This document shows, piece after piece, positions 8,128 through 19,600 of a DNA stretch of 55,597 bases. This DNA comes from a virus (taxonomy: Duplodnaviria; Caudoviricetes), in IMG/VR virus record IMGVR_UViG_3300014838_000025, positions 1-55,597 of that record; one strand, written 5' to 3'. The notes beneath the pieces were generated by a model. It was not told the DNA's origin and made no database searches. It saw only the letters and a program-made list of their open reading frames with translations. Each line of letters begins with the position of its first letter. The stretch's first letter is position 1. The translations under genes and the position numbers were made by a program.

Positions 8128-9058
8128 AAAAAAATGCTCCGCTGGCCGGACTTCCGACTATCGGACTTCCCCCGCCGCCGCTCTGCGCTACCTGCCCACC
8201 ACTCGCCGTGACCACCACGACCGCAACAATCTGGAAACCGTCAAGATTTGCGTTTAACCGATTTTGAGGCGTGTCTGACAAGTACGGGCCAAGCAGAGAA
8301 ACGTAGTTCTGACGCTTCTTTACTCCGTAGTACCAAACCCCGTTGACCTGCACATACCCGCCAGCCCCGCTGACCGTTCCTAGAGGCGCTTGATACTCCA
8401 GAACCGCCCCTCCAGAAGACGATGACGTAAGCTGATACGGCCCGTTGAACCCGGCTGGATTTACTCCGAAGATGGTCCCTATATTCCCTGCAACCAATCC
8501 CGAGGCCGCGCAGTTCACGGTCACAAGATTGTTGACTGCCGCGATTGTAACGATTGCGTACTGAGCCGGGAAACTAAGGATGTCGATCCTGCCACTCAAC
8601 TGAACCGTGCTTCCGTCTGCAAACGTGAGGATGCTTGCCGGAGTCGACACGGTTACAGATGAACCACCGTTTGTCAGGATTGGGATGATCTGGTTTGCGT
8701 TCGGAACCGTGGAAGGAACGTCATTCAAAAAACTGCTCGACTGTTCCCGCTGGCCGTTGTGATTCAGTATCCGGTAGCCAGCCATTGCGTTCGCGCTCCC
8801 CGGCTTCAACTGCTCTTTCAAAACCGGAGCCGAGTAATTCTTCGCGGCCTCGCCCGAAGATAGAGCGTCTGTCACTTCTACCGGAGCGCCGACATTCGTA
8901 ATCCGGTTTCCCCCGAGGTCAATATGGTTGGCAACTTTTATTGGCCCTGAGTACCCGAGAAGAGAATTTACCCGATCAATCAGGGACGAATAGTGCTGGT
9001 TGAATACCGGATCAAGCCCGGAGAAGTCTAGCTTGGCGATCTGGTTCGGAACTGACAT
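8126..9058 (-). CDS. Putative virion structural protein (310 aa)
   Basis: Beta-rich G/S/V/T composition, located among tail genes. Confidence 0.55.
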   Translation of the reverse strand: MSVPNQIAKLDFSGLDPVFNQHYSSLIDRVNSLLGYSGPIKVANHIDLGGNRITNVGAPVEVTDALSSGEAAKNYSAPVLKEQLKPGSANAMAGYRILNHNGQREQSSSFLNDVPSTVPNANQIIPILTNGGSSVTVSTPASILTFADGSTVQLSGRIDILSFPAQYAIVTIAAVNNLVTVNCAASGLVAGNIGTIFGVNPAGFNGPYQLTSSSSGGAVLEYQAPLGTVSGAGGYVQVNGVWYYGVKKRQNYVSLLGPYLSDTPQNRLNANLDGFQIVAVVVVTASGGQVAQSGGGGSPIVGSPASGAFF

Positions 9059-9061
9059 GGG

Positions 9062-9250
9062 CTAATTGTACATCATGTTGGCATAATCCATGAAATCCAA
9101 AATTTGGACTGCTTTCAACTGGTCAAAAAACGAATGATAGCAGCGGAAACAAGCCGAATGATCTTTGTCCCGGCGTGGATGGTGATTCTTCCTACTCTGA
9201 AAAACTGGACGATGCTGCCCGCATTCCGAACAAAGCCATGCACGACACAT
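9062..9250 (-). CDS. Small Cys-rich (Zn-ribbon-like) hypothetical protein
   Basis: CSEC...CFRC pairs; abuts the next gene. Confidence 0.4.
   Translation of the reverse strand: MCRAWLCSECGQHRPVFQSRKNHHPRRDKDHSACFRCYHSFFDQLKAVQILDFMDYANMMYN
9094..9110. repeat. 17-bp palindrome (copy 2)
   Basis: aatccaaaatttggact. Confidence 0.8.
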
Positions 9251-9291
9251 AAGAGCCTCGCATCATAGCTAACATCGTAGCACTAAAAGAG

Positions 9292-9365
9292 TGGAGCGGG
9301 AGACGAGATTTGCACTCGCGCCAAGAGGATGGAAGCCTCTTATGCTGCTTTTACACTACTCCCGC
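9292..9365 (-). tRNA. tRNA-Gly(UCC)
   Basis: Cloverleaf; AGAGG-CUUCCAU-CCUCU; U73 and encoded CCA. Confidence 0.9.
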
Positions 9366-9371
9366 AAACTT

Positions 9372-9447
9372 TGGTCGCTCAGGTTGGCCTCGAACCAACT
9401 ACCTCGCCCTTATCGGGAGCGGGCTCTTCCTGTTGAGCTACTGAGCG
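9372..9447 (-). tRNA. tRNA-Ile(GAU), C33
   Basis: CGCUC-CCGAUAA-GGGCG; CCA. Confidence 0.9.
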
Positions 9448-9506
9448 TCTTGTGATGTGCGTCCTTATCCTATGGCAGTTCGCACATAACAAATCTCCAT
9501 ATGTTG

Positions 9507-9582
9507 TGGTGCGGAAGGAGGGACTCGAACCCCCGAGTGTCTGGGTGTAGACCAGATGCCTTAGCCGCTTGGCGACTTCCGC
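9507..9582 (-). tRNA. tRNA-Val(UAC), C33
   Basis: UCUGG-UCUACAC-CCAGA; A73; CCA. Confidence 0.8.
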
Positions 9583-9583
9583 A

Positions 9584-9661
9584 TGGAGCAGCCGACTGGA
9601 CTCGAACCAGCCTCAATCCATCTACTCTTACCGGATTCGGAATCCGGGGAGATACGGCTGC
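9584..9661 (-). tRNA. Atypical tRNA-Arg(CCG)-like RNA lacking a D-arm, with a long extra region
   Basis: Acceptor GCAGCCG/CGGCUGC, T-arm GCUGG-UUCGAGU-CCAGU, arm CCGGA-UUCCGAA-UCCGG; only 7 nt between acceptor and anticodon arm; CCA. Confidence 0.7.
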
Positions 9662-9668
9662 AAAACTT

Positions 9669-9745
9669 TGGAGCGACCTGTCGGACTCAAACCGACATAC
9701 TCTTCGTTAGGACCGAAGTTCTCTATTCAATTGAGATAAGGCCGC
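9669..9745 (-). tRNA. tRNA-Arg(CCU)
   Basis: CUUCG-GUCCUAA-CGAAG; CCA. Confidence 0.88.
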
Positions 9746-9750
9746 AAAAC

Positions 9751-9825
9751 TGGAGAGCCTACTGGGAATTCAACCCAGATTCATTGCTTAGAAGGCAAGC
9801 GCCCTATGCGTTGGACGATAGGCTC
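9751..9825 (-). tRNA. tRNA-Arg(UCU)
   Basis: UUGC-CUUCUAA-GCAA; CCA. Confidence 0.88.
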
Positions 9826-9826
9826 T

Positions 9827-9901
9827 TGGTGGGTCGCCGGGGAATCCAACCCCGTCCCGGCTCCTTAAAAGGGAGTGATGCAAGCATTACACCTGCGACC
9901 C
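9827..9901 (-). tRNA. tRNA-Lys(UUU)
   Basis: CUCC-CUUUUAA-GGAG; CCA. Confidence 0.88.
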
Positions 9902-9906
9902 CAAAA

Positions 9907-9982
9907 TGGTGAGAGCGGTGGGCAACGATCCCACAGCCTTCCGGGTAAGGGCCGGGTGCTCCGCCGATTGAGCTACGCTCTC
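9907..9982 (-). tRNA. tRNA-Lys(CUU), C33
   Basis: CCGG-CCCUUAC-CCGG; CCA. Confidence 0.85.
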
Positions 9983-9983
9983 A

Positions 9984-10060
9984 TGGTTGCTCTGACTGGA
10001 TTTGAACCAGTGATCTGACGATTATGAGCCGTCTGCTTTAAGCCTCTAAGCTACAGAGCA
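9984..10060 (-). tRNA. tRNA(CAU): elongator Met or Ile2
   Basis: GACGG-CUCAUAA-UCGUC; paired 1:72; CCA. Confidence 0.88.
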
Positions 10061-10070
10061 ATAAACTTTA

Positions 10071-10144
10071 TGGCAGGGACACTCGGACTTGAACCGAGAA
10101 AAACGGTTTTGGAGACCGCTGGTTTGCATTGAGCCTATGTCCCT
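10071..10144 (-). tRNA. tRNA-Trp(CCA)
   Basis: GCGGU-CUCCAAA-ACCGU; G73; CCA. Confidence 0.9.
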
Positions 10145-10160
10145 ACATTTCTCAAAGACC

Positions 10161-10189
10161 AAACAAAACTCCCGGCCTGAGCCGAGAGT
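10161..10189 (-). terminator. Attenuator terminator preceding tRNA block 3
   Basis: ACUCUCGGC-UCAG-GCCGGGAGU followed by UUUGUUU; 5' arm can instead pair with GAGGGUCUGAGUG (10209-10221). Confidence 0.75.
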
Positions 10190-10219
10190 CTGGGTGAAAC
10201 CAAAACTACACTCAGACCC

Positions 10220-10294
10220 TCAAGACACGACTCCCCGCCCCATCCACTTAATCCCGATGGTTATGGTTCTGACGTGTTTGACGGTCTGAGTCAT
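10220..10294 (-). CDS. Leader peptide 3 (24 aa, MTQTVKHVRTITIGIKWMGRGVVS)
   Basis: Short ORF with AGGA SD, ending at the antiterminator; codons match block-3 tRNAs. Confidence 0.75.
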   Translation of the reverse strand: MTQTVKHVRTITIGIKWMGRGVVS

Positions 10295-10333
10295 TGCCTG
10301 TTCCTGCTGTTGAGCACCCTTCGTAGTAAAGAC

Positions 10334-10362
10334 AGCCTACATCACTTCTCGGAATCCTGCAA
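10334..10362 (-). promoter_or_regulatory. sigma70-like promoter for tRNA block 3
   Basis: TTGCAG-17 bp-TAGGCT. Confidence 0.55.
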
Positions 10363-11691
10363 GCGTTCATATTCGACAATGTAATCAACGCACGCTTCGC
10401 TCCAGCCGTCAAGGTGTACCCATGCCTTGTAGCCGATGCCGTTCTGGTAGCTGGCTACGTTGATGAAGTACCCCTTCTTGTCCTTTCCGGGGCCACTGAT
10501 CGACGTGTGCGACTGCTCATCGGTAATGACAATGCAACGGTCGTATCCTTCCTTCGTTGCCACTGCCAAGGCCGCTGCGGTGTCCGTGCCGCCTCTGTGC
10601 TTCGAGGACGTGATTGCATCCCTCAAAGCAAACCCGCGTCGAGGCGGAATCAAGCCTGCCGTTGAGCCGAATACAACGATCTGTACTTCCTCGCAGACCT
10701 CGCGCAAAAGCATTGCCAGAGCACACGCCGCATCCACTCTCCGCAACTCCGACTTGCCGGAAATCTTATCCGACATCGAACCTGAGTTGTCTACTACCAG
10801 AACCGTCTTTCCAGCCAACTTCTCATGGCCTTCCAGACACTTGAACATCGCCTGCTCAAGTTCCGGTTCCAGCGTTGGAGCATACCGCGCAGCCGTGATG
10901 AACCGAAAAGGCAATACCCGATCAGTCTTCATGGCTCTCAGACCCTTACGTATAGCTTCCACGTCCACTCCGGCCTGCTGCATATTGCGAAGGTTCCGCA
11001 GCAATGCCAGAGCACCCAACTTCTCTTCCGCCAGCAACCGCGTGAACGTCTCTTTCTTGTCGGCCCCGCCGCTCAACTGCACTTCCCATGTATCCGGCGA
11101 TTCCAACGTCTTGTCGGCCAGTTTCTTCCACACTGCGGCCTGCTCTTGATCCTTCGGCTTTGCATGGACAAGGAACAACACATCCCGCAACTTCACTGCC
11201 GCCGAGTCAGCGTTCCACTTTGCCAGAGCGTATGCGTCGAACTTCTGGAACGCAGCCGCGAGTCCCTTCTTCATCTGCGCCGTGAGAGACTGCTTCTTCT
11301 CTTTCCAGTACAGCGAGATCAACTCACCCATTTCGTCCGGCCTCTGAACGACTTCGAAGATCGCACCTGAAACCACAGCACGAGTCTGCTTTGTTGCCGC
11401 CCGAATCAGAGCGACTAACAGCACCAAAGGAACATGGCGAAGTTTGAACTTCGTTCTTGCTTCGACTGCAATGTTCGCCACGGTTTCCGCGCCGTCTTTT
11501 TGCTTCAGAATCTCTGCGGTCGTACCCTGAATCCGCTTGGCAATGGATTCTCCATCCTCGTAGAACTCGTCTTCCCACAAGAGGCAAGACATGACGCTCC
11601 GACGAAGCTGCTCAACCGGGTTTGCAAAGACGGCCACTGCCCCTTCATGCGTGTAAAGCAAAACTTTCTTTTCTTTTGTATTGGTTTTCAC
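10342..11691 (-). CDS. rsr: Ro60/Rsr-like TROVE + vWA RNA-binding protein (449 aa)
   Basis: TROVE motifs (FYEDG, LRDVLFLVHAKP, TWEVQLS, ALLRNLRN, VLPFRF) and vWA MIDAS DNSGSM...GGTD...ITDEQ; GTG start 11691 after AAGGAGG. Confidence 0.93.
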   Translation of the reverse strand: MKTNTKEKKVLLYTHEGAVAVFANPVEQLRRSVMSCLLWEDEFYEDGESIAKRIQGTTAEILKQKDGAETVANIAVEARTKFKLRHVPLVLLVALIRAATKQTRAVVSGAIFEVVQRPDEMGELISLYWKEKKQSLTAQMKKGLAAAFQKFDAYALAKWNADSAAVKLRDVLFLVHAKPKDQEQAAVWKKLADKTLESPDTWEVQLSGGADKKETFTRLLAEEKLGALALLRNLRNMQQAGVDVEAIRKGLRAMKTDRVLPFRFITAARYAPTLEPELEQAMFKCLEGHEKLAGKTVLVVDNSGSMSDKISGKSELRRVDAACALAMLLREVCEEVQIVVFGSTAGLIPPRRGFALRDAITSSKHRGGTDTAAALAVATKEGYDRCIVITDEQSHTSISGPGKDKKGYFINVASYQNGIGYKAWVHLDGWSEACVDYIVEYERLQDSEK

Positions 11692-11710
11692 ACTACCCTC
11701 CTTACAACAG

Positions 11711-11734
11711 AAAAGCCCCGCGTCAGCGAGGCTC
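11711..11734 (-). terminator. Terminator-like hairpin between the Y-RNA array and rsr
   Basis: GAGCCUCGC-UGAC-GCGGGGCUU then UUCUGUU. Confidence 0.6.
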
Positions 11735-11741
11735 TCATTTA

Positions 11742-11871
11742 TTCGGGGGAACAAACGGCACAGGAACGTAAGCGTTTTACCGTTAAACTACGTCATCCGA
11801 AGATGCCGGAGAGATTCGAACTCTCAACACTCGCTCCAAAGGCGAAGTACCTGTTACCTACGCCACCCGAA
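11742..11871 (-). ncRNA. Y RNA, YrlA-like, with permuted tRNA domain
   Basis: Terminal stem UUCGGG/CCCGAA, GUGGCG...UACUUC...UGUUCC scaffold; T-arm GAGAG-UUCGAAU-CUCUC, loop-closed acceptor stem, D-arm; adjacent to rsr. Confidence 0.85.
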
Positions 11872-11878
11872 CATCTAA

Positions 11879-11962
11879 GAGCCGAGAACATGTGCAGCCG
11901 GAGGTTTATCTGGAGCCAGTGTTTTGGCGGCTCTGAAGTATCCGACTACGGCACTACGGCTC
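11879..11962 (-). ncRNA. Y-RNA-like RNA (non-tRNA apical domain)
   Basis: GAGCCG/CGGCUC stem, GUAGUG...UACUUC...UGUUCU scaffold. Confidence 0.75.
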
Positions 11963-11971
11963 ACAACTAAA

Positions 11972-12077
11972 GGCCGAGAACATTTGTAACGATTTTGCCC
12001 TACCAACTAGGGCGTCTCTTGATTGCTCAGGAGACTGGAATCGAACCAGTGATGAAATCGTTACTACCACTACGGCT
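11972..12077 (-). ncRNA. Y RNA, YrlA-like, with T-arm/acceptor/D-arm domain
   Basis: AGCCG/CGGCC stem, GUAGUG...UGUUCU; ACUGG-UUCGAUU-CCAGU and GCCC-UAGUUGGUA-GGGC. Confidence 0.82.
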
Positions 12078-12088
12078 CAAACTTTAGT

Positions 12089-12171
12089 CTCCGGGGAACT
12101 CTCGACTTCGGGTATCCCTTTCGGGATTCGGTTTAAGCAATCGAAGTACCCGCCGTCTTTCACCACCGGAG
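12089..12171 (-). ncRNA. Y-RNA-like RNA
   Basis: CUCCGG/CCGGAG stem, GUGGUG...UACUUC...AGUUCC; UCCC-GAAA-GGGA hairpin. Confidence 0.75.
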
Positions 12172-12178
12172 CAATCTA

Positions 12179-12249
12179 TGTCGAGAGAACAAGCGCCACA
12201 GTGTTTTTTCTATTGGAGAGAGAAGTAACTGTGACTTCACTACTCGACA
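12179..12249 (-). ncRNA. Y-RNA-like RNA (minimal)
   Basis: UGUCGAG/CUCGACA stem, GUAGUG...UACUUC...UGUUCU. Confidence 0.75.
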
Positions 12250-12254
12250 ACCTC

Positions 12255-12283
12255 ATTACAGCATGTTGGCAAATTCCTGTCAA
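12255..12283 (-). promoter_or_regulatory. sigma70-like promoter of the Y-RNA/rsr unit
   Basis: TTGACA-17 bp-TGTAAT with TGn extension, 5 nt before the first Y RNA. Confidence 0.75.
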
Positions 12284-12302
12284 GCATCCTGCAAAATAAT
12301 TG

Positions 12303-12377
12303 TGGTCACCCTGGAAGAAATCGAATCCTCGTCTCGACGTTCGTAGCGTCGTGTTCTATCCGTTGAACTACAGGGTG
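12303..12377 (-). tRNA. tRNA-Arg(ACG)
   Basis: CGACG-CUACGAA-CGUCG; CCA. Confidence 0.92.
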
Positions 12378-12382
12378 AAAGA

Positions 12383-12410
12383 TGGTCGGGGTGGTGAGAA
12401 TCGAACTCAC
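12383..12410 (-). pseudogene. 3' part (T-arm, acceptor strand, CCA) of interrupted tRNA-Pro(UGG)
   Basis: GUGAG-UUCGAUU-CUCAC-CACCCCG-ACCA; CACCCCG pairs with CGGGGUG at 12932-12938. Confidence 0.75.
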
Positions 12411-12416
12411 TCGACG

Positions 12417-12764
12417 TTAGAACAGATCATGTTCTATTCTATGGCAATTGGCACATAGAATCTCACACTTCCCAATCTCCTCCAGTATCCTCTCTCTAGT
12501 CCATCCATCGCGTAAAGCGTTGGCAATAGCAAGAACCTTGGACTCCTTATCTTTATGATGGAAGTCAAGAGCGGCTGGATGGTTGAATCCACATCTCGCG
12601 CACTTCATTTCTGATTTCAACTCTCGAAGCCAAATCCGTTTAGATACCCTACGCCGAGCAAGCCTAATAACAGATTCCTTGTTGTATTGAGACTTGTTTT
12701 TCTCGTACCAAGTTCTCCATGCGGCGTTCTTTTGATCTTGCCTTTCTCGCTCTGTCCTTCTCAT
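12417..12764 (-). CDS. HNH endonuclease (115 aa)
   Basis: CARC...LDFHH...CEILCANCHRIEH; TATAAT 7 nt before ATG. Confidence 0.85.
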   Translation of the reverse strand: MRRTERERQDQKNAAWRTWYEKNKSQYNKESVIRLARRRVSKRIWLRELKSEMKCARCGFNHPAALDFHHKDKESKVLAIANALRDGWTRERILEEIGKCEILCANCHRIEHDLF

Positions 12765-12811
12765 GAAACCGATTATACGTCTTGGGATCACTGAATAGTA
12801 TCCTAAAATAT

Positions 12812-12886
12812 TGGTCGGGGCACCGGGAGTCCAACCCGATCCACATGCTCCCAAGGCACGGATGCTGTGCGTCACACTCTACCCCG
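12812..12886 (-). tRNA. tRNA-Pro(UGG), intact diverged copy
   Basis: CGUGC-CUUGGGA-GCAUG; C1:G72, A73; CCA. Confidence 0.85.
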
Positions 12887-12896
12887 ATATTTAAGT

Positions 12897-12938
12897 CATG
12901 ATCCCAAATCATGCGGCCAGCCTTTAGCCCACACCCCG
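12897..12938 (-). pseudogene. 5' part (acceptor strand, D-arm, anticodon arm) of interrupted tRNA-Pro(UGG)
   Basis: CGGGGUG...CAUGA-UUUGGGA-UCAUG with no T-arm following. Confidence 0.75.
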
Positions 12939-12939
12939 A

Positions 12940-13014
12940 TGGTGGTCTGTGGAGCACTCGAAGCTCCCTCTCCGCGTCTTCAGCGCGGCGCTACGCCATC
13001 TCAGCTAACAGACC
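12940..13014 (-). tRNA. tRNA-Phe(GAA)
   Basis: CCGCG-CUGAAGA-CGCGG; CCA. Confidence 0.9.
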
Positions 13015-13020
13015 AAACTT

Positions 13021-13095
13021 TGGTGGACGTGGCCGGGTACGATCCGGCGACCCTAGTTTGCAAGACTAGAATGTTCCCATCTACACTACACGCCC
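13021..13095 (-). tRNA. tRNA-Ala(UGC)
   Basis: CUAGU-CUUGCAA-ACUAG; G3:U70; CCA. Confidence 0.92.
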
Positions 13096-13115
13096 ATTAA
13101 CTTGTCAAAGAACTT

Positions 13116-13190
13116 TGGGGTAGGTAACGGGAATCAAACCCGTGTGTCGAGGGCCACGACCTCGCGTCCTGTCACTGAACGATACCCACC
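13116..13190 (-). tRNA. tRNA-His(GUG), C33
   Basis: CGAGG-UCGUGGC-CCUCG; G-1:C73; CCA. Confidence 0.9.
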
Positions 13191-13198
13191 ATAAAATC

Positions 13199-13264
13199 AT
13201 TAGGCTAGGGTCGGCCTTTTAACACCCTATTTCAAATCCAACATTGGGCCTTGGATCACCTAAT
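13199..13264 (-). ncRNA. Unidentified three-way-junction RNA
   Basis: AUUAGG/CCUAAU enclosing AUCCAA/UUGGAU and UAGGGU/ACCCUA hairpins. Confidence 0.45.
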
Positions 13265-13265
13265 C

Positions 13266-13340
13266 TGGAGCACCCGGACGGATTCAAACCGTCTTCCCCT
13301 CGCTTACAAGGCGAGACATCATCAGCAATGCTTCAGGTGC
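13266..13340 (-). tRNA. tRNA-Thr(UGU)
   Basis: CUCGC-CUUGUAA-GCGAG; CCA. Confidence 0.88.
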
Positions 13341-13881
13341 CTACAAACGTAAACCTCTTGTCACCTTCGGAATCGACGTACAAAAATCGACTCCACTCTT
13401 GAACGCCCATTCCGATACTCCGCAGCATGAACCTGCTCGTGTGTACGCTGCTTGGAAGTGGCCGACGAATCAAAGGCATTCCTGCTTCCTCTGGCGTCTG
13501 GTCGTCCTTCCTCTGATTACAGTCTTTGCAAGCCGCCGTCAGATTCTCCCAAGTGCTCCTCCCGCCTTGCGCCTTCGGGATGATGTGATCCAGCGTCAGA
13601 TGCTCTCCTGAAAACTTGTGACCACAGTAATTGCAGTGATACCCGTCTCTCACGTAAATGTTCTTCCGAGTAACAATCTGCATCCGAACCGGGACGTGAC
13701 GATAAACCCGCAAGCGAATCACGCTTGGCAAGTACACGCCCGGATAAATCATCCTGTCCGTTGCTACCTCTACTACGGCCTTGCCCTTCGTGAGCAACGT
13801 GAGAGCTTTACGGACAGTAACTATCCTTATGGCTTCGTAGCTGGCGTTAAGCAACAGCGTCGGAGTCCGCATTAAGTTCAT
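13333..13881 (-). CDS. HNH endonuclease, McrA-like (182 aa)
   Basis: LLLNASYE...RDGYHCNYCG...LTLDHIIPKAQGGRSTWENLTAACKDCN; SD GAAAGGA. Confidence 0.9.
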   Translation of the reverse strand: MNLMRTPTLLLNASYEAIRIVTVRKALTLLTKGKAVVEVATDRMIYPGVYLPSVIRLRVYRHVPVRMQIVTRKNIYVRDGYHCNYCGHKFSGEHLTLDHIIPKAQGGRSTWENLTAACKDCNQRKDDQTPEEAGMPLIRRPLPSSVHTSRFMLRSIGMGVQEWSRFLYVDSEGDKRFTFVGT

Positions 13882-13896
13882 CACGTCAATCCTTTC

Positions 13897-13972
13897 TGGA
13901 GCTACCGGGGTTACTCGAAAACCCAACCTGTCGCTTACGAGACGACCGCTCTACCACTTGAGCTACGGCAGC
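13897..13972 (-). tRNA. tRNA-Thr(CGU)
   Basis: GUCGU-CUCGUAA-GCGAC; CCA. Confidence 0.92.
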
Positions 13973-13979
13973 ACATCTT

Positions 13980-14054
13980 TGGAGCGGGTTAAGGGAATCG
14001 AACCCTCGTATCGGCCTTGGCAAAGCCGCACTCTACCAACTGAGTTAAACCCGC
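13980..14054 (-). tRNA. tRNA-Gly(GCC)
   Basis: CGGCU-UUGCCAA-GGCCG; U73; CCA. Confidence 0.92.
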
Positions 14055-14060
14055 AAAACT

Positions 14061-14136
14061 TGGCAGGGACGCTCAGAGTCGAACTGAGATAAAACCCGAT
14101 CCAAAGTCGGGTGCCTGACCGCTCGGCCACGTCCCT
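14061..14136 (-). tRNA. tRNA-Gln(UUG)
   Basis: CCCGA-CUUUGGA-UCGGG; CCA. Confidence 0.88.
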
Positions 14137-14143
14137 ACAATTA

Positions 14144-14218
14144 TGGCTCCCCGCGAGAGATTTGAACTCCCATAATGACCTTCAGAGGGTCACGTCCTGC
14201 CAATTGAACGAACGGGGA
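14144..14218 (-). tRNA. tRNA-Gln(CUG)
   Basis: UGACC-CUCUGAA-GGUCA; U1:A72; CCA. Confidence 0.9.
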
Positions 14219-14225
14219 ACATAAA

Positions 14226-14312
14226 TGGCTCAGGCGGCAGGACTCTAACCTGCATTCCCTTGCGGGCACTTCGGTTAACAGCCGAGGCCGATAACATTCC
14301 GGACACACCTGA
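14226..14312 (-). tRNA. tRNA-Asn(GUU) with long variable arm
   Basis: UCGG-CUGUUAA-CCGA; V-arm CCC-GCAA-GGG; U1:A72, G73; CCA. Confidence 0.8.
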
Positions 14313-14324
14313 ATAATCATTTGT

Positions 14325-14367
14325 AAAAGATCAAAGCCTCCAAGCCCTTGTTCCGGCTTGGAGGCTT
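14325..14367 (-). terminator. Attenuator terminator preceding tRNA block 2
   Basis: AAGCCUCCAAGCC/GGCUUGGAGGCUU 13-bp stem then UGAUCUUUU; competing strand GGCUUGGACUCAGU at 14403-14416. Confidence 0.8.
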
Positions 14368-14400
14368 CTCAGTTTTTCCGCTCATCTGCGGGAAAAAATC

Positions 14401-14481
14401 TTACTGAGTCCAAGCCAACACACAATTACCTTGCGGCTGCGCCGTTGGGGTAAATCCGCGATGTGTGGCTCGTGTTCTCAT
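14401..14481 (-). CDS. Leader peptide 2 (26 aa, MRTRATHRGFTPTAQPQGNCVLAWTQ), leaderless
   Basis: ATG 6 nt after the -10 box; codons match all block-2 tRNAs; last codons form the antiterminator strand. Confidence 0.8.
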   Translation of the reverse strand: MRTRATHRGFTPTAQPQGNCVLAWTQ

Positions 14482-14487
14482 GTAAGC

Positions 14488-14516
14488 AACTTACCTGAAT
14501 TCTCTTTACCTGTCAA
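14488..14516 (-). promoter_or_regulatory. sigma70-like promoter for tRNA block 2
   Basis: TTGACA-17 bp-TAAGTT. Confidence 0.75.
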
Positions 14517-14784
14517 ACACTTTCCCAATATTTATTATTCCTGCTCTAAGTCGAGCATACCCATCTGGGTGAATAAGACCACATCCAAGATTACCAAGCA
14601 GGTACATATCTCCGGTAGCGTCCACTTCGTGCCAGTTATGTTTTTCTTTCCGCCACTTCTTCTGAATCCGAACTCGCTTGGATCGTGGAAACCTAAACTG
14701 TTCATTGCGGGTCTTAGGCATAAACGGATCGGCCATGACCTTAATGCCACTAAAGGTGCCGGACAACATATTCGGAAAGTCCAT
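14506..14784 (-). CDS. Hypothetical protein (92 aa)
   Basis: ATG 14784 after GAGAGG; basic motif RFPRSKRVRIQKKWRK. Confidence 0.55.
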   Translation of the reverse strand: MDFPNMLSGTFSGIKVMADPFMPKTRNEQFRFPRSKRVRIQKKWRKEKHNWHEVDATGDMYLLGNLGCGLIHPDGYARLRAGIINIGKVFDR

Positions 14785-14801
14785 TTTCCCTCTCGTAACC
14801 T

Positions 14802-14879
14802 TGGCGTTCCTGATCGGATTTGAACCGATGTTCCCGCGCTGAGAACGCAGTTGCCTAAGCCGGACTAGCAGACAGGAAC
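14802..14879 (-). tRNA. tRNA-Glu(CUC)
   Basis: CUGCG-UUCUCAG-CGCGG; CCA. Confidence 0.88.
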
Positions 14880-14883
14880 GCAA

Positions 14884-14961
14884 TGGTAGGGTAGATGAGA
14901 ATTGAACTCATATTGTCCTGAGTGAAAGTCAGGGTTCCTATTCCATTTAGAAGACTACCCC
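14884..14961 (-). tRNA. tRNA-Glu(UUC)
   Basis: CCUGA-CUUUCAC-UCAGG; CCA. Confidence 0.9.
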
Positions 14962-14967
14962 AAAACT

Positions 14968-15077
14968 TTTTGCAGTGAGCAGGTTTTGTGTCCCTGCCTT
15001 AGAGCGTAAGTAGGTGTTTCACCATCCCCCGCGTAGCTTGCTTTCGCATTCTCAGCCGTAAGACCGTCACTGCAAAA
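14968..15077 (-). ncRNA. Unidentified ~110-nt multi-hairpin RNA within the tRNA array
   Basis: 11-bp closing stem UUUUGCAGUGA/UCACUGCAAAA; hairpins UGC-GAAA-GCA, GGUG-AAA-CACC, GCAGG/CCUGC. Confidence 0.55.
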
Positions 15078-15079
15078 CT

Positions 15080-15155
15080 TGGCGAGGATGAGGAGATTCA
15101 AACTCCCGACTTCCAGCGTGACAAGCTGGCGCTTTTTCAACTAAGCTACATCCCC
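15080..15155 (-). tRNA. tRNA-Asp(GUC)
   Basis: CCAGC-UUGUCAC-GCUGG; G73; CCA. Confidence 0.92.
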
Positions 15156-15160
15156 AAAAT

Positions 15161-15237
15161 TGGTTGCTAGGGTGGAAGTCTAATCCACTGATTTTCGACT
15201 TATGAGGCCGACGAGCCAACGTTGCTCCATCCCAGCT
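15161..15237 (-). tRNA. tRNA-Met(CAU), initiator-like
   Basis: UCGGC-CUCAUAA-GUCGA; A1:A72 mismatch and GAGC/GCUC D-stem; the three G:C anticodon-stem pairs are incomplete. Confidence 0.78.
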
Positions 15238-15265
15238 ACAAAGCATATTACCGATACTTCTAAAA

Positions 15266-15356
15266 TGGTGCAAGTGGGAGAATTCGAATCTCCAGCGTTC
15301 CCGTAAGGAATCTAGTTTTACAGACTAGCGCAGCCAACCGTATCTGCCTCACTTGC
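15266..15356 (-). tRNA. tRNA-Tyr(GUA)
   Basis: CUAGU-CUGUAAA-ACUAG; long V-arm; CCA. Confidence 0.9.
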
Positions 15357-15797
15357 GTGTCGCCTTCTACTCCGTGCTTCACTGCGGCATAGTCGGCATT
15401 CCGTTTGAACTCCACGTCTCTTTGTCCGATCCTTCGTGAACTCAGAAACTAATGCAAAATGCTCCCCTTCACAACACCATGCCATGCCCGGAGGATCAAT
15501 TATTCGCAAATGAGCATTCACATCCATCTTCCGAAGGTCTTCCTTCGTTTTCTCTAAATGACATAATGAACATAACACTTGGGTCTTGGAAAGTTCTTCG
15601 TCTCTACGAACCTTCGACCATGACCATATAGCATGAGTTTCTTTTGTCAGTGGATCAATATGGTCGAGTTCTAAATTTTTTCTTGATCCACATCGAACAC
15701 ATTGCTTTCCTCGAAAATAAGATTCCCTCCGCTCGGCAATCCACTTTCTCTGGTAAGCCCTCATGTACTCCCGTCTTGACTGATAAGTTGAAGACAT
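15318..15797 (-). CDS. HNH endonuclease (159 aa); 3' end overlaps tRNA-Tyr
   Basis: CVRCGSRKNLELDHIDP...QVLCSLCHLEKT plus a C-terminal Cys cluster; TGnTATACT 6 nt before ATG. Confidence 0.88.
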   Translation of the reverse strand: MSSTYQSRREYMRAYQRKWIAERRESYFRGKQCVRCGSRKNLELDHIDPLTKETHAIWSWSKVRRDEELSKTQVLCSLCHLEKTKEDLRKMDVNAHLRIIDPPGMAWCCEGEHFALVSEFTKDRTKRRGVQTECRLCRSEARSRRRHASEADTVGCASL

Positions 15798-15821
15798 GGC
15801 GGAAGTATATCACATGAACAC

Positions 15822-15909
15822 TGGCGGAGACGGAGTGAGTCCAACACTCAAGTCCTTTCGGCACGTCCGGGTTCAAACCGGGTGGGCTTTGCACATGCCC
15901 AACGTCTCC
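15822..15909 (-). tRNA. tRNA-Ser(UGA)
   Basis: CCGG-UUUGAAC-CCGG; V-arm; G73; CCA. Confidence 0.88.
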
Positions 15910-15913
15910 AAAC

Positions 15914-16003
15914 TGGCGGAAGAGGAGAGGAACGATCTCTCAGTACCTTTTGGTACGTCCGATTTCGAATCGGGTGGGCTTGCCAGCCTTGCCCAACTCT
16001 TCC
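15914..16003 (-). tRNA. tRNA-Ser(CGA)
   Basis: CCGA-UUCGAAA-UCGG; V-arm; CCA. Confidence 0.88.
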
Positions 16004-16004
16004 G

Positions 16005-16093
16005 TGGCGGAAGTGGACGGGTACGATCCGTCATGTCCCTTTCGGGTACGCCTGCTTTCCAGACAGGTGAGCCACCAATTGCTCAACACTTCC
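16005..16093 (-). tRNA. tRNA-Ser(GGA)
   Basis: CCUGU-CUGGAAA-GCAGG; V-arm; CCA. Confidence 0.9.
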
Positions 16094-16098
16094 ATAAA

Positions 16099-16188
16099 TG
16101 GCGGAGACGGCTGGGTACGATCCAGCAATACCATTTAAGGTACTCTCGCTTAGCGGGCGAGTGCAATTTCCATTTCTGCCACGTCTCC
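16099..16188 (-). tRNA. tRNA-Ser(GCU), C33
   Basis: CUCGC-CCGCUAA-GCGAG; V-arm; CCA. Confidence 0.88.
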
Positions 16189-16193
16189 AAACT

Positions 16194-16272
16194 TGGTGCC
16201 GATGCCCGGACTCGAACCGGGAAGCCGCTCGTTTTGAGTGAGCGAGGTATACCAAGTTCCCTTCACATCGGC
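16194..16272 (-). tRNA. tRNA-Leu(CAA), short variable loop
   Basis: GCUCA-CUCAAAA-CGAGC; A73; CCA. Confidence 0.85.
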
Positions 16273-16292
16273 ATAATCATTTTTCAAAGAAC

Positions 16293-16368
16293 TGGTAGGG
16301 GCGGAAGGACTCGAACCCTCAAAGACTGGGCCTAGGCCAGCCGTGTTTGCCACTTACACCACGCCCCC
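16293..16368 (-). tRNA. tRNA-Leu(UAG), C33, short variable loop
   Basis: GCUGG-CCUAGGC-CCAGU; CCA. Confidence 0.85.
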
Positions 16369-16373
16369 AAACT

Positions 16374-16448
16374 TGGAGCAGCGGGCGAGAATCGAACTCG
16401 CCAATAACAGTTTTGCAGACTGTCCGCTAACCGATTGCGTTTCCGTGC
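16374..16448 (-). tRNA. tRNA-Cys(GCA), bulged acceptor stem
   Basis: ACAGU-CUGCAAA-ACUGU; U73; 5' strand GCACGG versus 3' strand CCGCUGC. Confidence 0.82.
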
Positions 16449-16451
16449 TCA

Positions 16452-16528
16452 TGGTGCGGGTGAAGGGCATCGAACCCCTAGAACCGGGATTTTAAGTCCC
16501 AGATGTCTACCAGTTGCATCACACCCGC
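16452..16528 (-). tRNA. tRNA-Leu(UAA), short variable loop
   Basis: UGGGA-CUUAAAA-UCCCG; A73; CCA. Confidence 0.88.
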
Positions 16529-16530
16529 AC

Positions 16531-16556
16531 AATAAAAATGCCTCCACTCGGGAGGC
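16531..16556 (-). terminator. Attenuator terminator preceding tRNA block 1
   Basis: GCCUCC-CGAGU-GGAGGC then AUUUUUAUU; competing strand GGGAGGCGUUCGUC at 16587-16600. Confidence 0.8.
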
Positions 16557-16567
16557 TCCGTCAGGAC

Positions 16568-16584
16568 AGTCCAAATTTTGGACT
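16568..16584. repeat. 17-bp palindrome (copy 3, inside attenuator 1)
   Basis: agtccaaattttggact. Confidence 0.85.
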
Positions 16585-16649
16585 CAGACGAACGCCTCCC
16601 TGCCCGATGACAGGCTATACAAATCGGAACTGAGGCATAAGGTCTTCAT
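16584..16649 (-). CDS. Leader peptide 1 (21 aa, MKTLCLSSDLYSLSSGREAFV; in-frame GTG at 16652 is an alternative start)
   Basis: Starts at or near the predicted +1; codons match block-1 tRNAs; last codons form the antiterminator strand. Confidence 0.8.
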   Translation of the reverse strand: MKTLCLSSDLYSLSSGREAFV

Positions 16650-16659
16650 CACGAAACCA

Positions 16660-16688
16660 ACTATCTCACGGCTTAGGCCGAGTGTCAA
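16660..16688 (-). promoter_or_regulatory. sigma70-like promoter for tRNA block 1
   Basis: TTGACA-17 bp-GATAGT with TGn extension. Confidence 0.7.
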
Positions 16689-19600
16689 CTATCCATTCGG
16701 CATGAAAGCCATTTTCGCATATCCCTTGCCGACCACCTGCGGTTTGGTTTCAATACAACTTTCGTCACCCCAAATCTGGAAGTCCGTGGGCGAGGTTGCA
16801 ATGAAGCGAATCATCTTGAACGATACCGCTGGCAAGCGAACTCTCTGCTGGCTGCGAACCCCGGCGCTGTTCGGCAACGTGAAGGTGAAGAACGCTGTGG
16901 ATGACCCATCATAGTAAACATTTACCGTTATCACGCCGGTACTCGTAAACTCCCAGAAGCTATCCTTCGCAATACTGTTAGAGTCCTGTGAAAGCCGCAG
17001 CCAAAAACTGTCCATCACCTTCCGCGTTTTTGCCAGAGGCAGGGCTTTCAAACCAATCTGGTACACATACACGGCTGCGGACACGTTCCCAGTTATCAAA
17101 ACTGAAACTTTGTAATACTCAAAGCCATTTCCAGCATTCAAAGAGAAGTTAACCTTCTCGCGGATTACGGTATTTACGTTGCCAATCAACTGCGTTACTT
17201 GCCCATCCTCGAACATGAGAGAGACTGACACGTTCTGCCCATTCGTGTTTATATCGAGCGTCAGTTCTTGGAAACTTTTAGTCGATGCCGGATTCCCGAA
17301 ATCTGTGTACAAGGTTTGCAGGTTCATCGTGATCGGAACTTGTGTAAGAGAGCCTGATGTATTCCCCTCATCGTAGAACTGATCCTGCCTGTCGATGTGA
17401 ACCAGACCGTTCGAGTCGCCATAAAGCAGACTGTTTGTGTCAACTTCGAGAAATAATGATTGTGCATCAACGTCATCATTGCGCCAGCGTTTGTAATGCG
17501 TGTGCAAGCAGAGACGATGCCGCGCTTCGTCTGTTCCGATGTAGCTCACGTAGACCAGAGTGTTCCAGTACGCGATCCGGGTTTGCGAGAGTTTCGTCTG
17601 ATCGGACTCGACAATCGGACTTGAGCCTACCCCTTGGAAGATGAACTCCAAATCCTGCGTCAAGTACATTGACGCTCCGCCTGCGAAGAAACGTACACCG
17701 TCAATCGCTTGGTAGAACACTCCCTCTTCCGTGACAACCCATCCTAACGGAGCGATGCAGCCGTGCTTAGATGCGGTCGGATAGATTGTCGGACTTGCAT
17801 TTGCGTTGCTCCCCGGCGCTACTGAGAACCATCCTCCCTTCAAGGTTGAGACATAAAGATTACCCTTGATCGCAGCAATTACCGTAATAGGATCGTCAGC
17901 CGTGGTCACAGCTACATACGCCGCTGAACTCACGGCTTGAGGATAGTTTGACGCACTCCAGTACAAACTGTTCGGATTATTCGGATCACCCGCAAACCAG
18001 AACTGCCCGTAGGCTTGCGCCATGATCGTCACTGGTTGACCGTAATTTGCCGTGGCCGAAACCGTTTCCCCTACGGCATGGGTGTTCTGTACAAAGGCCG
18101 TGAAGTAGTTCGAGCCAAGCGAGAGCACAATCACTGTTTCAAAATTGTTGGCAATGGACCCGATCACCCCAATCGAGACTTGCTGCCGCAGAGAGATGCT
18201 TGCCATGCTTGTCGGATAGACGTTCACAACCTGATTCGTCGTCGCTATCCCCGTACTCAAATACGTGTTGACAGGGTTCTGCAACGTGCTCGTCACCGGA
18301 ACATCGTTGGTAAAAGAGATGATGTCGCTCTGCTGGATGTCAACGTCCGTTGACGTGTCCAGATACGTCTGCGGGCTTCCGGTAATCAGAACCTCGTCCA
18401 GCTTGCGGTAGTTGTCGCCTAGCGTTCCCCCTCGGCGGTAGATTCTCAGGCTCGTGGTCTGAGGATCAACCGTTGGAAATGTCATCGTCAGTTGAACTGG
18501 TTGCCGCCTTGGATACACCCAATTCGTATCGAGTGAAGGATTCACATTCGACATCACCATGCAGGGGTTTGACTCGGTTCCATCCACGTTGTTGTAGAAC
18601 GTGAACAGATAATCGTAGGCCACTCCCGCAAACGTGTCCGGCCCTGAGCCTCCAAATAAAATCAGCGAAGCTATATCGACCGTGACTGACGTGTTGTTGT
18701 TCATCACAATCGTTATCTGGTATCCGTTTACAGCACTCCAGTTGAACACAGGATCGTTAAAATCCGCACGGCCTGAGCCAGCAAAATCCGACAACTGCAA
18801 AAGCAGTGGAGTCCACGTATTCAACCCTGTATTCAATTCGGCAATACTGCTTGGACTGCTTACGGTTGTTGAACTTCCGTAGATTCCTAAAGACTCGTAA
18901 AGCAACGCATCTGTCGCGGCTGTCGTCGCCTCTGTGGTGTTGCTGCTTGCCGTGTCGAGAAGATTTTGCAGCGGCCCCTGAGCAATCACCTTGTAAAAAT
19001 AGTCCGAGTTGAAGGTTCCATCCCCACAATCAAACTTGAGAGTGATCGACTGAATCTGCGATGGATCGAATGCAGGCGTAGTCCCTGACGGAGCACCCAG
19101 CCACAAGCCGATGTAGTCCTCCATATTCAGAGTCGTCGGCCATCCGGCTATCGGAAACCCTACAAACGAATTTGTAATCGTTGCCGTGGTCGATGGAGCA
19201 ATGACCGCCTGATTTCCACGAAGTTGAACATTTTGTCCGATAATATGTGTTTTCGTGAAGTTGGCAATAAAGCCTGTCTCTGTCACCCCTAGAACCAAAA
19301 CATACTCAGCATTTGTCGAAACGAATCCGACCGCTAGATATTGGAACAATCCAATCGCTTGCGGATTTGCAACTGACACAGCCTGAATACCCGGAACCGT
19401 AACAGCCGAAGTGAGCGTTGTGCCAACTAGAATGTTGTTTGGATTGAACGTCGTCACGCCTGAAGTCGTGTAGGTAGAACTTACGTAGTAATCCAGAACA
19501 ATCAGATCGGGATTAAGAGCCTCAGCCGCCACAGGGTATTGCGGTTGGAAGATTCCCATCTGCTGCGGTGCTGCTAGAGTTCCGTTGTCCTTTTTCATGC

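Follow-up and report, generated by a model that had tools for sequence, protein, structure and literature searches.

Leader 3 and the tRNA unit behind it

The DNA analysed here (the window), 55,597 bases long, comes from IMG/VR as a virus record with a completeness estimate of 57%; its minus strand carries an array of transfer RNA (tRNA) genes running from 16528 to 9292. The default setting of ARAGORN called 29 tRNA genes in the array; Rfam and a relaxed ARAGORN run added further ones, including Met, Asn, Pro, Lys(UUU) and Cys, and the total came to 34 after two tRNA-like modules overlapping weak YrlA (Y-RNA-like) hits had been taken out. The array is interrupted by an HNH endonuclease gene, two further open reading frames (ORFs) without a family and a Ro60/TROVE-vWA gene (11754-10342). 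The subject of this study is the small element, called leader 3, that sits between the stop codon of the Ro60 gene and the tRNA-Trp gene. An earlier note on this DNA had read it as a leader attenuator tuned to the tRNAs encoded downstream. Its parts, and the tRNA unit that follows, are listed below.

10334-10362, minus strand: promoter-like site, TTGCAG-17 nt-TAGGCT, overlapping the end of the Ro60 gene; recognized by reading the sequence
10302-10305, minus strand: Shine-Dalgarno-like AGGA, 7 nt upstream of the ATG at 10294
10220-10294, minus strand: leader ORF 3, 24 codons plus TGA; peptide MTQTVKHVRTITIGIKWMGRGVVS
10283-10291, minus strand: region 1 (ACTCAGACC, codons 2-4), pairing with region 2 in the absence of a ribosome
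10209-10221, minus strand: region 2, 5' arm of the antiterminator (GAGGGTCTGAGTG), starting within the stop codon
10184-10196, minus strand: region 3, 3' arm of the antiterminator (CACCCAGACTCTC), overlapping the 5' arm of the terminator
10159-10190, minus strand: intrinsic terminator, 10-bp stem (10190-10167), loop TCAG, then TTTTGTTTGG
9292-10144, minus strand: unit 3, ten tRNA genes, i.e. Trp(CCA), Met/CAU, Lys(CUU), Lys(UUU), Arg(UCU), Arg(CCU), D-arm-less Arg(CCG), Val(UAC), Ile(GAU) and Gly(UCC)

The promoter-like site was not reported by the consensus promoter scan. No other promoter-like site or gene was found, in the ORF list or by the consensus scan, between the leader-3 ORF and tRNA-Trp, and Rfam gave no match within 10145-10341. 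Eight of the ten tRNAs of unit 3 were called by ARAGORN at default and the relaxed run added Lys(UUU), at about 9901-9827. The D-arm-less Arg(CCG) gene (9662-9587, minus strand) was read by eye; the one tool to support it was Rfam, with a weak tRNA-clan hit (tRNA-Sec model, 27.2 bits).

As the earlier note had stated, a hairpin beginning in the stop codon competes with the terminator, and both folds beat those of shuffled sequences. The antiterminator, formed by regions 2 and 3 (GAGGGTCTGAGTG/CACCCAGACTCTC), has a free energy of -15.8 kcal/mol (z = -2.95, one of 200 shuffles being as good). The terminator, which the consensus scan also detected, has one of -17.2 kcal/mol (z = -4.57, none of 200 shuffles). 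They share the six bases ACTCTC and are therefore mutually exclusive. Codons 2-4 pair with the segment located just after the stop codon, so that the element has a four-region layout like that of trp; this 1:2 hairpin is at -38.9 kcal/mol (z = -5.72), and the z value of the whole element is -4.72. Three states were obtained depending on the ribosome: 1:2 and 3:4 pairing when there is none, 2:3 pairing when it is stalled in the leader, and 3:4 pairing when it sits on the stop codon.

Codon content of the leaders of the window

The ORF, its translation and the codons that the earlier note had listed for leader 3 (AAA, AAG, AGA, CGG, ATA, ATC, ATT, TGG, ATG, GGA, GGG and GTG) were all reproduced. 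AGG is indeed absent, and Thr, Gln and His codons are indeed present, together with Ser codons. With strict wobble, 12 of the 23 sense codons following the start codon are cognate to unit 3, and nine of its ten tRNAs are covered, as had been claimed, with Arg(CCU) the sole exception. The cognate codons are scattered, one to three per tRNA, and form no tandem runs. By comparison, just two of the 23 codons match unit 1 and two match unit 2. Each of these units is headed by a leader module of its own:

16540-16688, minus strand: leader 1 module; promoter TTGACA-17-GATAGT (16688-16660), ORF from 16652 or 16649 to 16584, peptide (V)MKTLCLSSDLYSLSSGREAFV, terminator 16556-16540
14802-16528, minus strand: unit 1, 13 tRNA genes (Leu x3, Cys, Ser x4, Tyr, Met, Asp, Glu x2) plus one inserted ORF
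14333-14516, minus strand: leader 2 module; promoter TTGACA-17-TAAGTT (14516-14488), ORF 14481-14401, peptide MRTRATHRGFTPTAQPQGNCVLAWTQ, hairpin/terminator 14368-14333
12303-14312, minus strand: unit 2, 11 tRNA genes (Asn, Gln x2, Gly(GCC), Thr(CGU), Thr(UGU), His, Ala, Phe, Pro, Arg(ACG)), with the HNH gene and another ORF inserted

Of the 13 tRNAs of unit 1, 12 find a codon in leader 1, or all 13 if that ORF starts at the GTG found seven nt after the -10 hexamer; leader 2 covers all 11 tRNAs of unit 2. Together the three modules precede all 34 tRNA genes of the array.

The match was compared with chance in two ways. When codons were drawn at random from the phage codon usage, the probability of reaching the values of leader 3 was 3e-3 for the number of matched codons, 3.7e-3 for the coverage and 4e-4 for both; the corresponding P(both) was 4e-5 for leader 1 and 2.8e-4 for leader 2. 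The second comparison was with natural sequences. The window holds 249 ORFs of 19-33 codons in its six frames; among 247 small ORFs other than the leader, one reached its matched fraction, two its coverage and none both.

Conservation in two syntenic relatives

A search with the Ro60 protein as query gave 30 IMG/VR loci as relatives. Two of these genomes, G001 and G002, have a Ro60 protein 66-68% identical to that of the window, a syntenic array and all three leaders. Before counting, two G002 calls were removed, one a low-score Ala(CGC) and the other an Arg(ACG) distant from the array; the Val(AAC) call of G002 was re-read by eye as Ile(UAU), and tRNA-like calls overlapping Y-RNA-like modules were excluded. 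For each of the nine leaders of the window, G001 and G002, the best match was its own unit, whether the tRNA calls were default or relaxed and the wobble rules strict or lenient. In leader 3 of G001, 16 of 21 codons are cognate and 11 of 12 tRNAs are covered; in that of G002, read from a GTG located seven bases after the -10 hexamer and aligned to the G001 start codon, the values are 19 of 27 codons and 12 of 12 tRNAs. The three leader-3 peptides have little order in common. The codons, including AGA, AAG, CGG, ATT, TGG, GGA, GTG, ATG and ACC, are reused, and the indels that distinguish the three ORFs preserve the frame. In G001 and G002, leader 3 is separated from Ro60 by one or more genes and is always directly before tRNA-Trp; the element thus belongs to the tRNA unit and not to Ro60.

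Genes for isoacceptors of Arg, Gly and Thr occur in both unit 2 and unit 3. Over the three genomes, the leaders 2 contain 19 codons for the isoacceptors of unit 2 (CGA/CGC/CGT, GGT, ACA/ACG) and seven for those of unit 3, against three and 24, respectively, in the leaders 3 (Fisher P 5e-6). Such a split cannot be explained by the function of a peptide.

The relatives also bear on the remark of the earlier note that the match of leader 3 is looser than that of the two other leaders. The additional Thr, Gln and His codons are real, and much of the looseness is explained. The four Thr codons of the window leader 3 are ACY codons, readable by tRNA-Thr(GGU), a gene lying between Val and Ile in unit 3 of both G001 and G002 and missing from the window (59-nt gap, 9448-9506, minus strand), which suggests either a recent loss of the gene or a lag of the leader behind it. 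Moreover, the first Thr-Gln-Thr codons are region 1 of the 1:2 hairpin. Another claim, that the CGG codon indirectly supports the use of the Arg(CCG) tRNA, agrees with the comparison, in the same indirect manner: CGG is found in the five leader-3 homologues that were read, and the Arg(CCG) gene in the four complete leader-3 units, the fifth unit being cut by a contig end.

Near-consensus -35 hexamers (TTGACA or TTGCAR) are found before all nine leaders. The sites aligned with that of the window leader 3 are TTGCAA-17-TAGGCT in G002 and TTGACA-18-TACTAT in G001. For eight of the nine leaders, 6-7 nt separate the -10 hexamer from the start codon that follows it, hence these transcripts would be leaderless mRNAs. 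The exception is leader 3 of the window, where 39 nt and the AGGA precede the ATG. The spacers of all three leader-1 promoters end with CCGTGA, i.e. with an extended -10 TG.

Folding of the nine leaders

The terminator hairpin starts 24-33 nt past the stop codon in all nine leaders, and in eight of them at least five of the next eight bases are T. Folding was also limited to the RNA made before the 3' arm of the terminator, which is a modelling choice and not a proof. Under this condition, a ribosome placed at codon 9 or 13 leaves, in every leader, a hairpin of -19 to -34 kcal/mol that engages the 5' arm of the terminator by pairing it with the end of the ORF or with the segment following the stop codon. 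Placing the ribosome on the stop codon instead reduces this to between 0 and -5.6 kcal/mol, again in nine out of nine. When folding was carried out at equilibrium, the expected switch (little terminator at the stall, much of it at the stop) was clear in three cases only: leader 1 of the window, leader 1 of G001 and leader 3 of the window.

The three states described above recur in the four leader-3 homologues that were folded (window, G001, G002 and the metagenome locus L047), the stem sequences being different. Region 1 still pairs with region 2 in G001, G002 and L047; in G002 both sides have changed, CAGAT/ATCTG being present instead of CAGAC/GTCTG.

Matched leaders in other lineages

Small ORFs located shortly before a tRNA gene of the same strand were sought in IMG/VR loci L002-L031 (L004 and L005 left out; 76 candidates) and in metagenome loci L039-L118 (60 candidates). 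Most of these candidates displayed no cognate enrichment. Among those that matched, the leader MLTQGTPKPQTRTYQRYCGRCVQKMGVLS of G007/L014 covers nine of ten tRNAs of a unit for Lys, Pro, Arg, Tyr, Gly, Gln, Thr and Cys. L002/L003, with a reduced unit (Ser x2, Glu, Lys), have the leader MKHLSSLSSSSSLSESGGV, which covers four tRNAs out of four and contains no Cys or Tyr codon. L044 has two leaders (12/13 and 10/10 tRNAs), as does L106 (5/6 and 11/12); the latter belongs with L081, L092 and L108 to a second lineage with matched leaders. A homologue of leader 3 is carried by L047/L048. The genome of a cultivated isolate, Granulicella aggregans M8UP14 (L149), has a leader covering seven of seven tRNAs, with 15 of 27 codons cognate and a P(both) of 1e-4. 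There the leader, the terminator and the seven-tRNA unit lie on the reverse strand (8688-9545) of a 1.2 Mb contig, near a Ro60 gene.

The content of the leaders follows the gene content of the units. In the leader-1 family, a leader has Cys codons when there is a tRNA-Cys gene and not otherwise, and the same is true of Tyr codons and tRNA-Tyr genes, in eight genomes out of eight for each. Among the leader-3-like frames, that of L128, a contig from an Acidobacteriaceae metagenome-assembled genome, alone has a Glu codon, and its unit alone has a Glu tRNA. In that homologue (reverse strand, 10299-10440) both hairpins and the codon content are kept. For 17 leaders pooled (leader 3 of L047 and leader 2 of L108 were left out, their units being cut by contig ends), a cognate codon is found in the leader for 154 of the 165 tRNAs of its own unit and for 181 of 481 species outside the unit; these figures come from related genomes. 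When the tRNAs that vary between genomes were considered, concordant cells outnumbered discordant ones in the leader-1 family (90 against 38), a good agreement, whereas the counts of families 2 (10:10) and 3 (4:2) carry no information. In most discordant cells the codon is present and the tRNA gene was not called.

An IMG/VR pattern scan for the conserved terminator with the motif downstream of it returned the G002 contig only. A blastn search of cultured phages (INPHARED) with 9200-12400 as query gave similarities to Ro60 and tRNAs and no relative of the leader. Caulobacter phage CcrColossus was considered and dropped, for it has Ro60 but no adjoining tRNA array.

Proposed mechanism and its alternatives

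Everything that the reading of the earlier note predicts and that can be computed was observed: each leader is specific for its own unit, the codon set is conserved while its order is shuffled, synonymous codons are partitioned, and the hairpins exclude each other, the choice between them depending on where the ribosome is. Computation thus shows that the leader ORF and the hairpins exist, that the latter are mutually exclusive, and that the codons match the tRNAs and do so in relatives as well. On these grounds, we consider it likely that the region is a ribosome-mediated (leader-peptide) transcription attenuator gating a ten-gene phage tRNA operon; translation of the leader ORF, coupling of transcription to translation and a change of termination upon stalling are the parts of the model that we infer.

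The attenuator would operate as follows. Transcription would begin at the weak promoter where the Ro60 gene ends, or come from the Ro60 gene by read-through, and a ribosome would translate the 24-codon leader, which has at least one codon for nine of the ten downstream tRNAs. If decoding were fast, the ribosome would reach the TGA and cover region 2, the 3:4 terminator would form and transcription would stop before tRNA-Trp. If any cognate tRNA were scarce, because its codon is rare in the host, or because the tRNA has been cleaved by a host anticodon nuclease, degraded or left uncharged, the ribosome would stall within the leader; regions 2 and 3 would then pair, the terminator would be blocked and the tRNA unit would be transcribed. 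Build-up of the phage tRNAs should in turn speed up translation of the leader and turn the unit off, which would make the supply demand-driven and self-limiting. Without a ribosome, region 1 would sequester region 2 and termination would be the default, as in trp. We also lean, with distinctly less assurance, towards a broader view in which the element senses tRNA supply with codon resolution. If any one host tRNA were lost, precisely the operon holding its replacement would be switched on, to be shut off again by the phage tRNAs. Each operon would be headed by a 'test ORF' with about one codon per encoded tRNA, a device spread over several phage or prophage-like lineages of the Acidobacteriaceae, including a cultivated Granulicella strain.

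Several observations weigh against attenuation by the leader. At equilibrium and with the full terminator, the latter dominates at any ribosome position in six of the nine leaders, so that the model needs kinetic trapping of the antiterminator. The hairpin of leader 2 of G001 has a poor U tract (4 T in 8). In leader 3 of the window, 11 of the 23 codons are non-cognate under strict wobble, Arg(CCU) is without a codon and the four Thr codons have no matching tRNA in the unit; a lone hungry codon, unlike the runs of his and leu, may also hold the ribosome too briefly. Several leaders would require leaderless GTG starts, and the L128 homologue has ATA at the start position with no canonical in-frame start. 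Several of the tRNA calls come from the relaxed ARAGORN run or were read by eye, and the pooled P values are inflated because the genomes are related and inherited states are counted repeatedly. Finally, the arrays of three other tRNA-rich relatives (G005, G006 and G009), which are a natural control for the leader scan, have no cognate-enriched ORF before their terminator-like hairpins (every P > 0.1), and in L040, where leader 3 was lost or never existed, the terminator ahead of tRNA-Trp is not preceded by a leader ORF. The system is thus confined to some lineages.

Some of these points would suit a different mode of control, in which translation of the leader acts at another step, a stalled or missing ribosome exposing the transcript to Rho or to RNases, or the alternative hairpins steering the processing or stability of the tRNA precursors. 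The codon match indicates that decoding matters but not at which step, and both the prevalence of the terminator at equilibrium, regardless of the ribosome, in six leaders and the hairpin devoid of a good U tract could be accommodated. We nevertheless think this unlikely, given the U tract of the eight other hairpins, the spacing of 24-33 nt held between stop codon and hairpin, and a competing hairpin that overlaps exactly the 5' arm of the terminator and is lost with the ribosome on the stop codon in nine leaders out of nine, which is the geometry of an attenuator. Chance, i.e. an accidental ORF caught between the terminator of the Ro60 gene and the tRNA block, is the least probable explanation of all. 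Short ORFs are common in the window and leader 3 could have been chosen post hoc, but no other small ORF of the control set reached both measures, all three leaders match their own units with the P values given above, and the pattern recurs in relatives and in other lineages.

Two possibilities remain. The region could be a structured non-coding RNA with an untranslated ORF, either a Y-RNA-like partner of Ro60 or a small RNA (sRNA) released at the terminator. A Ro60/TROVE homologue lies just upstream, the region is strongly structured, and attenuator RNAs of other systems can double as sRNAs (PMC6614838). The absence of an Rfam match over 10145-10341, the location of the weak YrlA-like hits upstream of Ro60 and the constant position of the homologous element in G001 and G002, directly before tRNA-Trp and not beside Ro60, nevertheless make such an RNA quite improbable; it would also leave the in-frame indels, the unit-specific codons and the synonymous partition unexplained. 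Still a little less credible is a role for the encoded peptides in their own right, the terminators being ordinary gene ends. Relatives do have these ORFs at conserved positions and with part of the sequence conserved; against this, the peptide order is shuffled while the codon content is kept, the composition tracks the downstream tRNAs and differs by synonymous codons, and the non-cognate codons cluster at sites of RNA pairing (region 1 in leader 3, the antiterminator arm at the 3' end of leader 1).

Comparison with known attenuators

The trpL, hisL and leuL sequences are leader-peptide attenuators of enterobacterial amino-acid operons. Together with pheL, they resemble the present element in having a short ORF with regulatory codons, 1:2, 2:3 and 3:4 pairings and a terminator with a U tract, and in that a ribosome at the stop codon leads to termination and a stalled one to read-through; for pheL, the mechanism is described in PMC3082878. 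Attenuators of the trp, his and leu type differ in that they regulate biosynthetic enzymes or synthetases through tandem codon runs, whereas here ten tRNA genes stand behind scattered codons. The quantity sensed would be the product itself, i.e. decoding capacity, through one to three codons for each of 9-13 tRNAs. Most leaders of the present set appear to be leaderless mRNAs, and the setting is a phage.

Multivalent attenuators are known from the ilvGMEDA and thr leaders, which respond to two or three amino acids of one pathway. They too sense several species at once, as an OR gate; here up to thirteen tRNA species would be involved, and all that these have in common is that their genes lie downstream. 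In pheST, the pheM leader peptide attenuates an aminoacyl-tRNA synthetase operon, so that a component of translation is controlled by the decoding speed of cognate codons, as proposed here; its target, by contrast, is a protein enzyme for one amino acid, and neither a tRNA operon nor a phage is concerned. T-box riboswitches, which bind tRNA directly and need no ORF, also sense tRNA status and choose between terminator and antiterminator upstream of translation-related genes. No T-box family was among the 37 Rfam matches obtained over 8500-17500 at E values up to 1.

The role of phage tRNA genes is debated, the proposals being compensation for codon usage, replacement of host tRNAs that decay and escape from anticodon nucleases. 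We know of no tRNA operon for which such a product-feedback loop has been described. No published account of how phage tRNA genes are controlled, or of leader-peptide attenuation of tRNA genes in phages or bacteria, was found among about 8.1 million PubMed Central articles and 0.36 million preprints searched in full text and judged by title and abstract, a corpus mostly outside the subscription journals. By analogy, the mechanism would be of a known kind, leader-peptide attenuation; what would be new is the target, tRNA genes, the sensing of their own decoding capacity and the phage setting. If the model is true, these would be the first tRNA genes placed under leader-peptide attenuation, and the speed at which their own cognate codons are decoded would regulate them, through direct product feedback. 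Large phage arrays would then be grouped in units, each with its own sensor, and phage counter-defence against tRNA-targeting immunity would, for the first time, have a sensing arm built into it. The codons of a leader would provide a computational read-out of which odd tRNA-like genes, such as those for D-arm-less Arg tRNAs, are in use. The design is compact and modular (a promoter, an ORF of 20-30 codons and two hairpins) and may serve as a synthetic sensor of tRNA availability.

Other features of the arrays and the likely host

The tRNA-Arg(CCG) of the window (9587-9662, minus strand) has no D arm and a long variable arm, and is missed by ARAGORN at default. G002 carries three such Arg genes in a row (UCU, CCU and CCG; L034 16565-16808), equally missed, whose codons are held by the leaders. 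The array of G002 also contains a tmRNA (transfer-messenger RNA)-like gene (L034 3788-4173), with Rfam scores of 75.2 bits for the permuted tmRNA model and 52.3 bits for tmRNA.

HNH endonuclease genes and similar small Cys/His-rich ORFs lie between tRNA blocks, at 13333-13926, 15318-15797 and 12417-12875 on the minus strand of the window and at 245-721 in L044; the HNH assignment by Pfam concerns 13333-13926. The insertions differ in place among relatives, and in L044 one of them separates leader 1 from its tRNAs.

A Y RNA (YrlA) identity was tried for leader 3 and rejected. The YrlA-like hits, at 30.8 and 27 bits for a gathering score of 69, are located only at 11967-12079 and 11744-11852. 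These two weak hits to a tRNA-mimic RNA are on the minus strand and precede the Ro60 gene (10342-11754, minus strand), and ARAGORN calls one of them tRNA-Gln. Contigs of three RNA libraries cover 11746-12255, and homologous Y-RNA-like modules precede Ro60 in G001 and G002.

As to the host, the closest bacterial Ro60 proteins (55-59% identity) are mostly from Acidobacteriaceae, homologous leaders and arrays are present in two acidobacterial genomes, and the sequencing runs containing the window stretch are labelled peat, permafrost and freshwater metagenomes. Taken together, these give a hint, and only a hint, of the host range.

Parts of the array, above all the Y-RNA-like region, are represented in contigs of four RNA libraries; such contigs show neither strand, ends nor levels. 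Near leader 3, one contig of a relative spans 9977-10228 and another 10254-10731, with the same limits as to strand and ends. In contigs from two RNA libraries, 14493 is joined to 14801, 32 other letters replacing 307 bases. This looks like a strain variant in which the DNA from tRNA-Glu to the leader-2 promoter is missing, and with it the greater part of the doubtful ORF 14506-14883.

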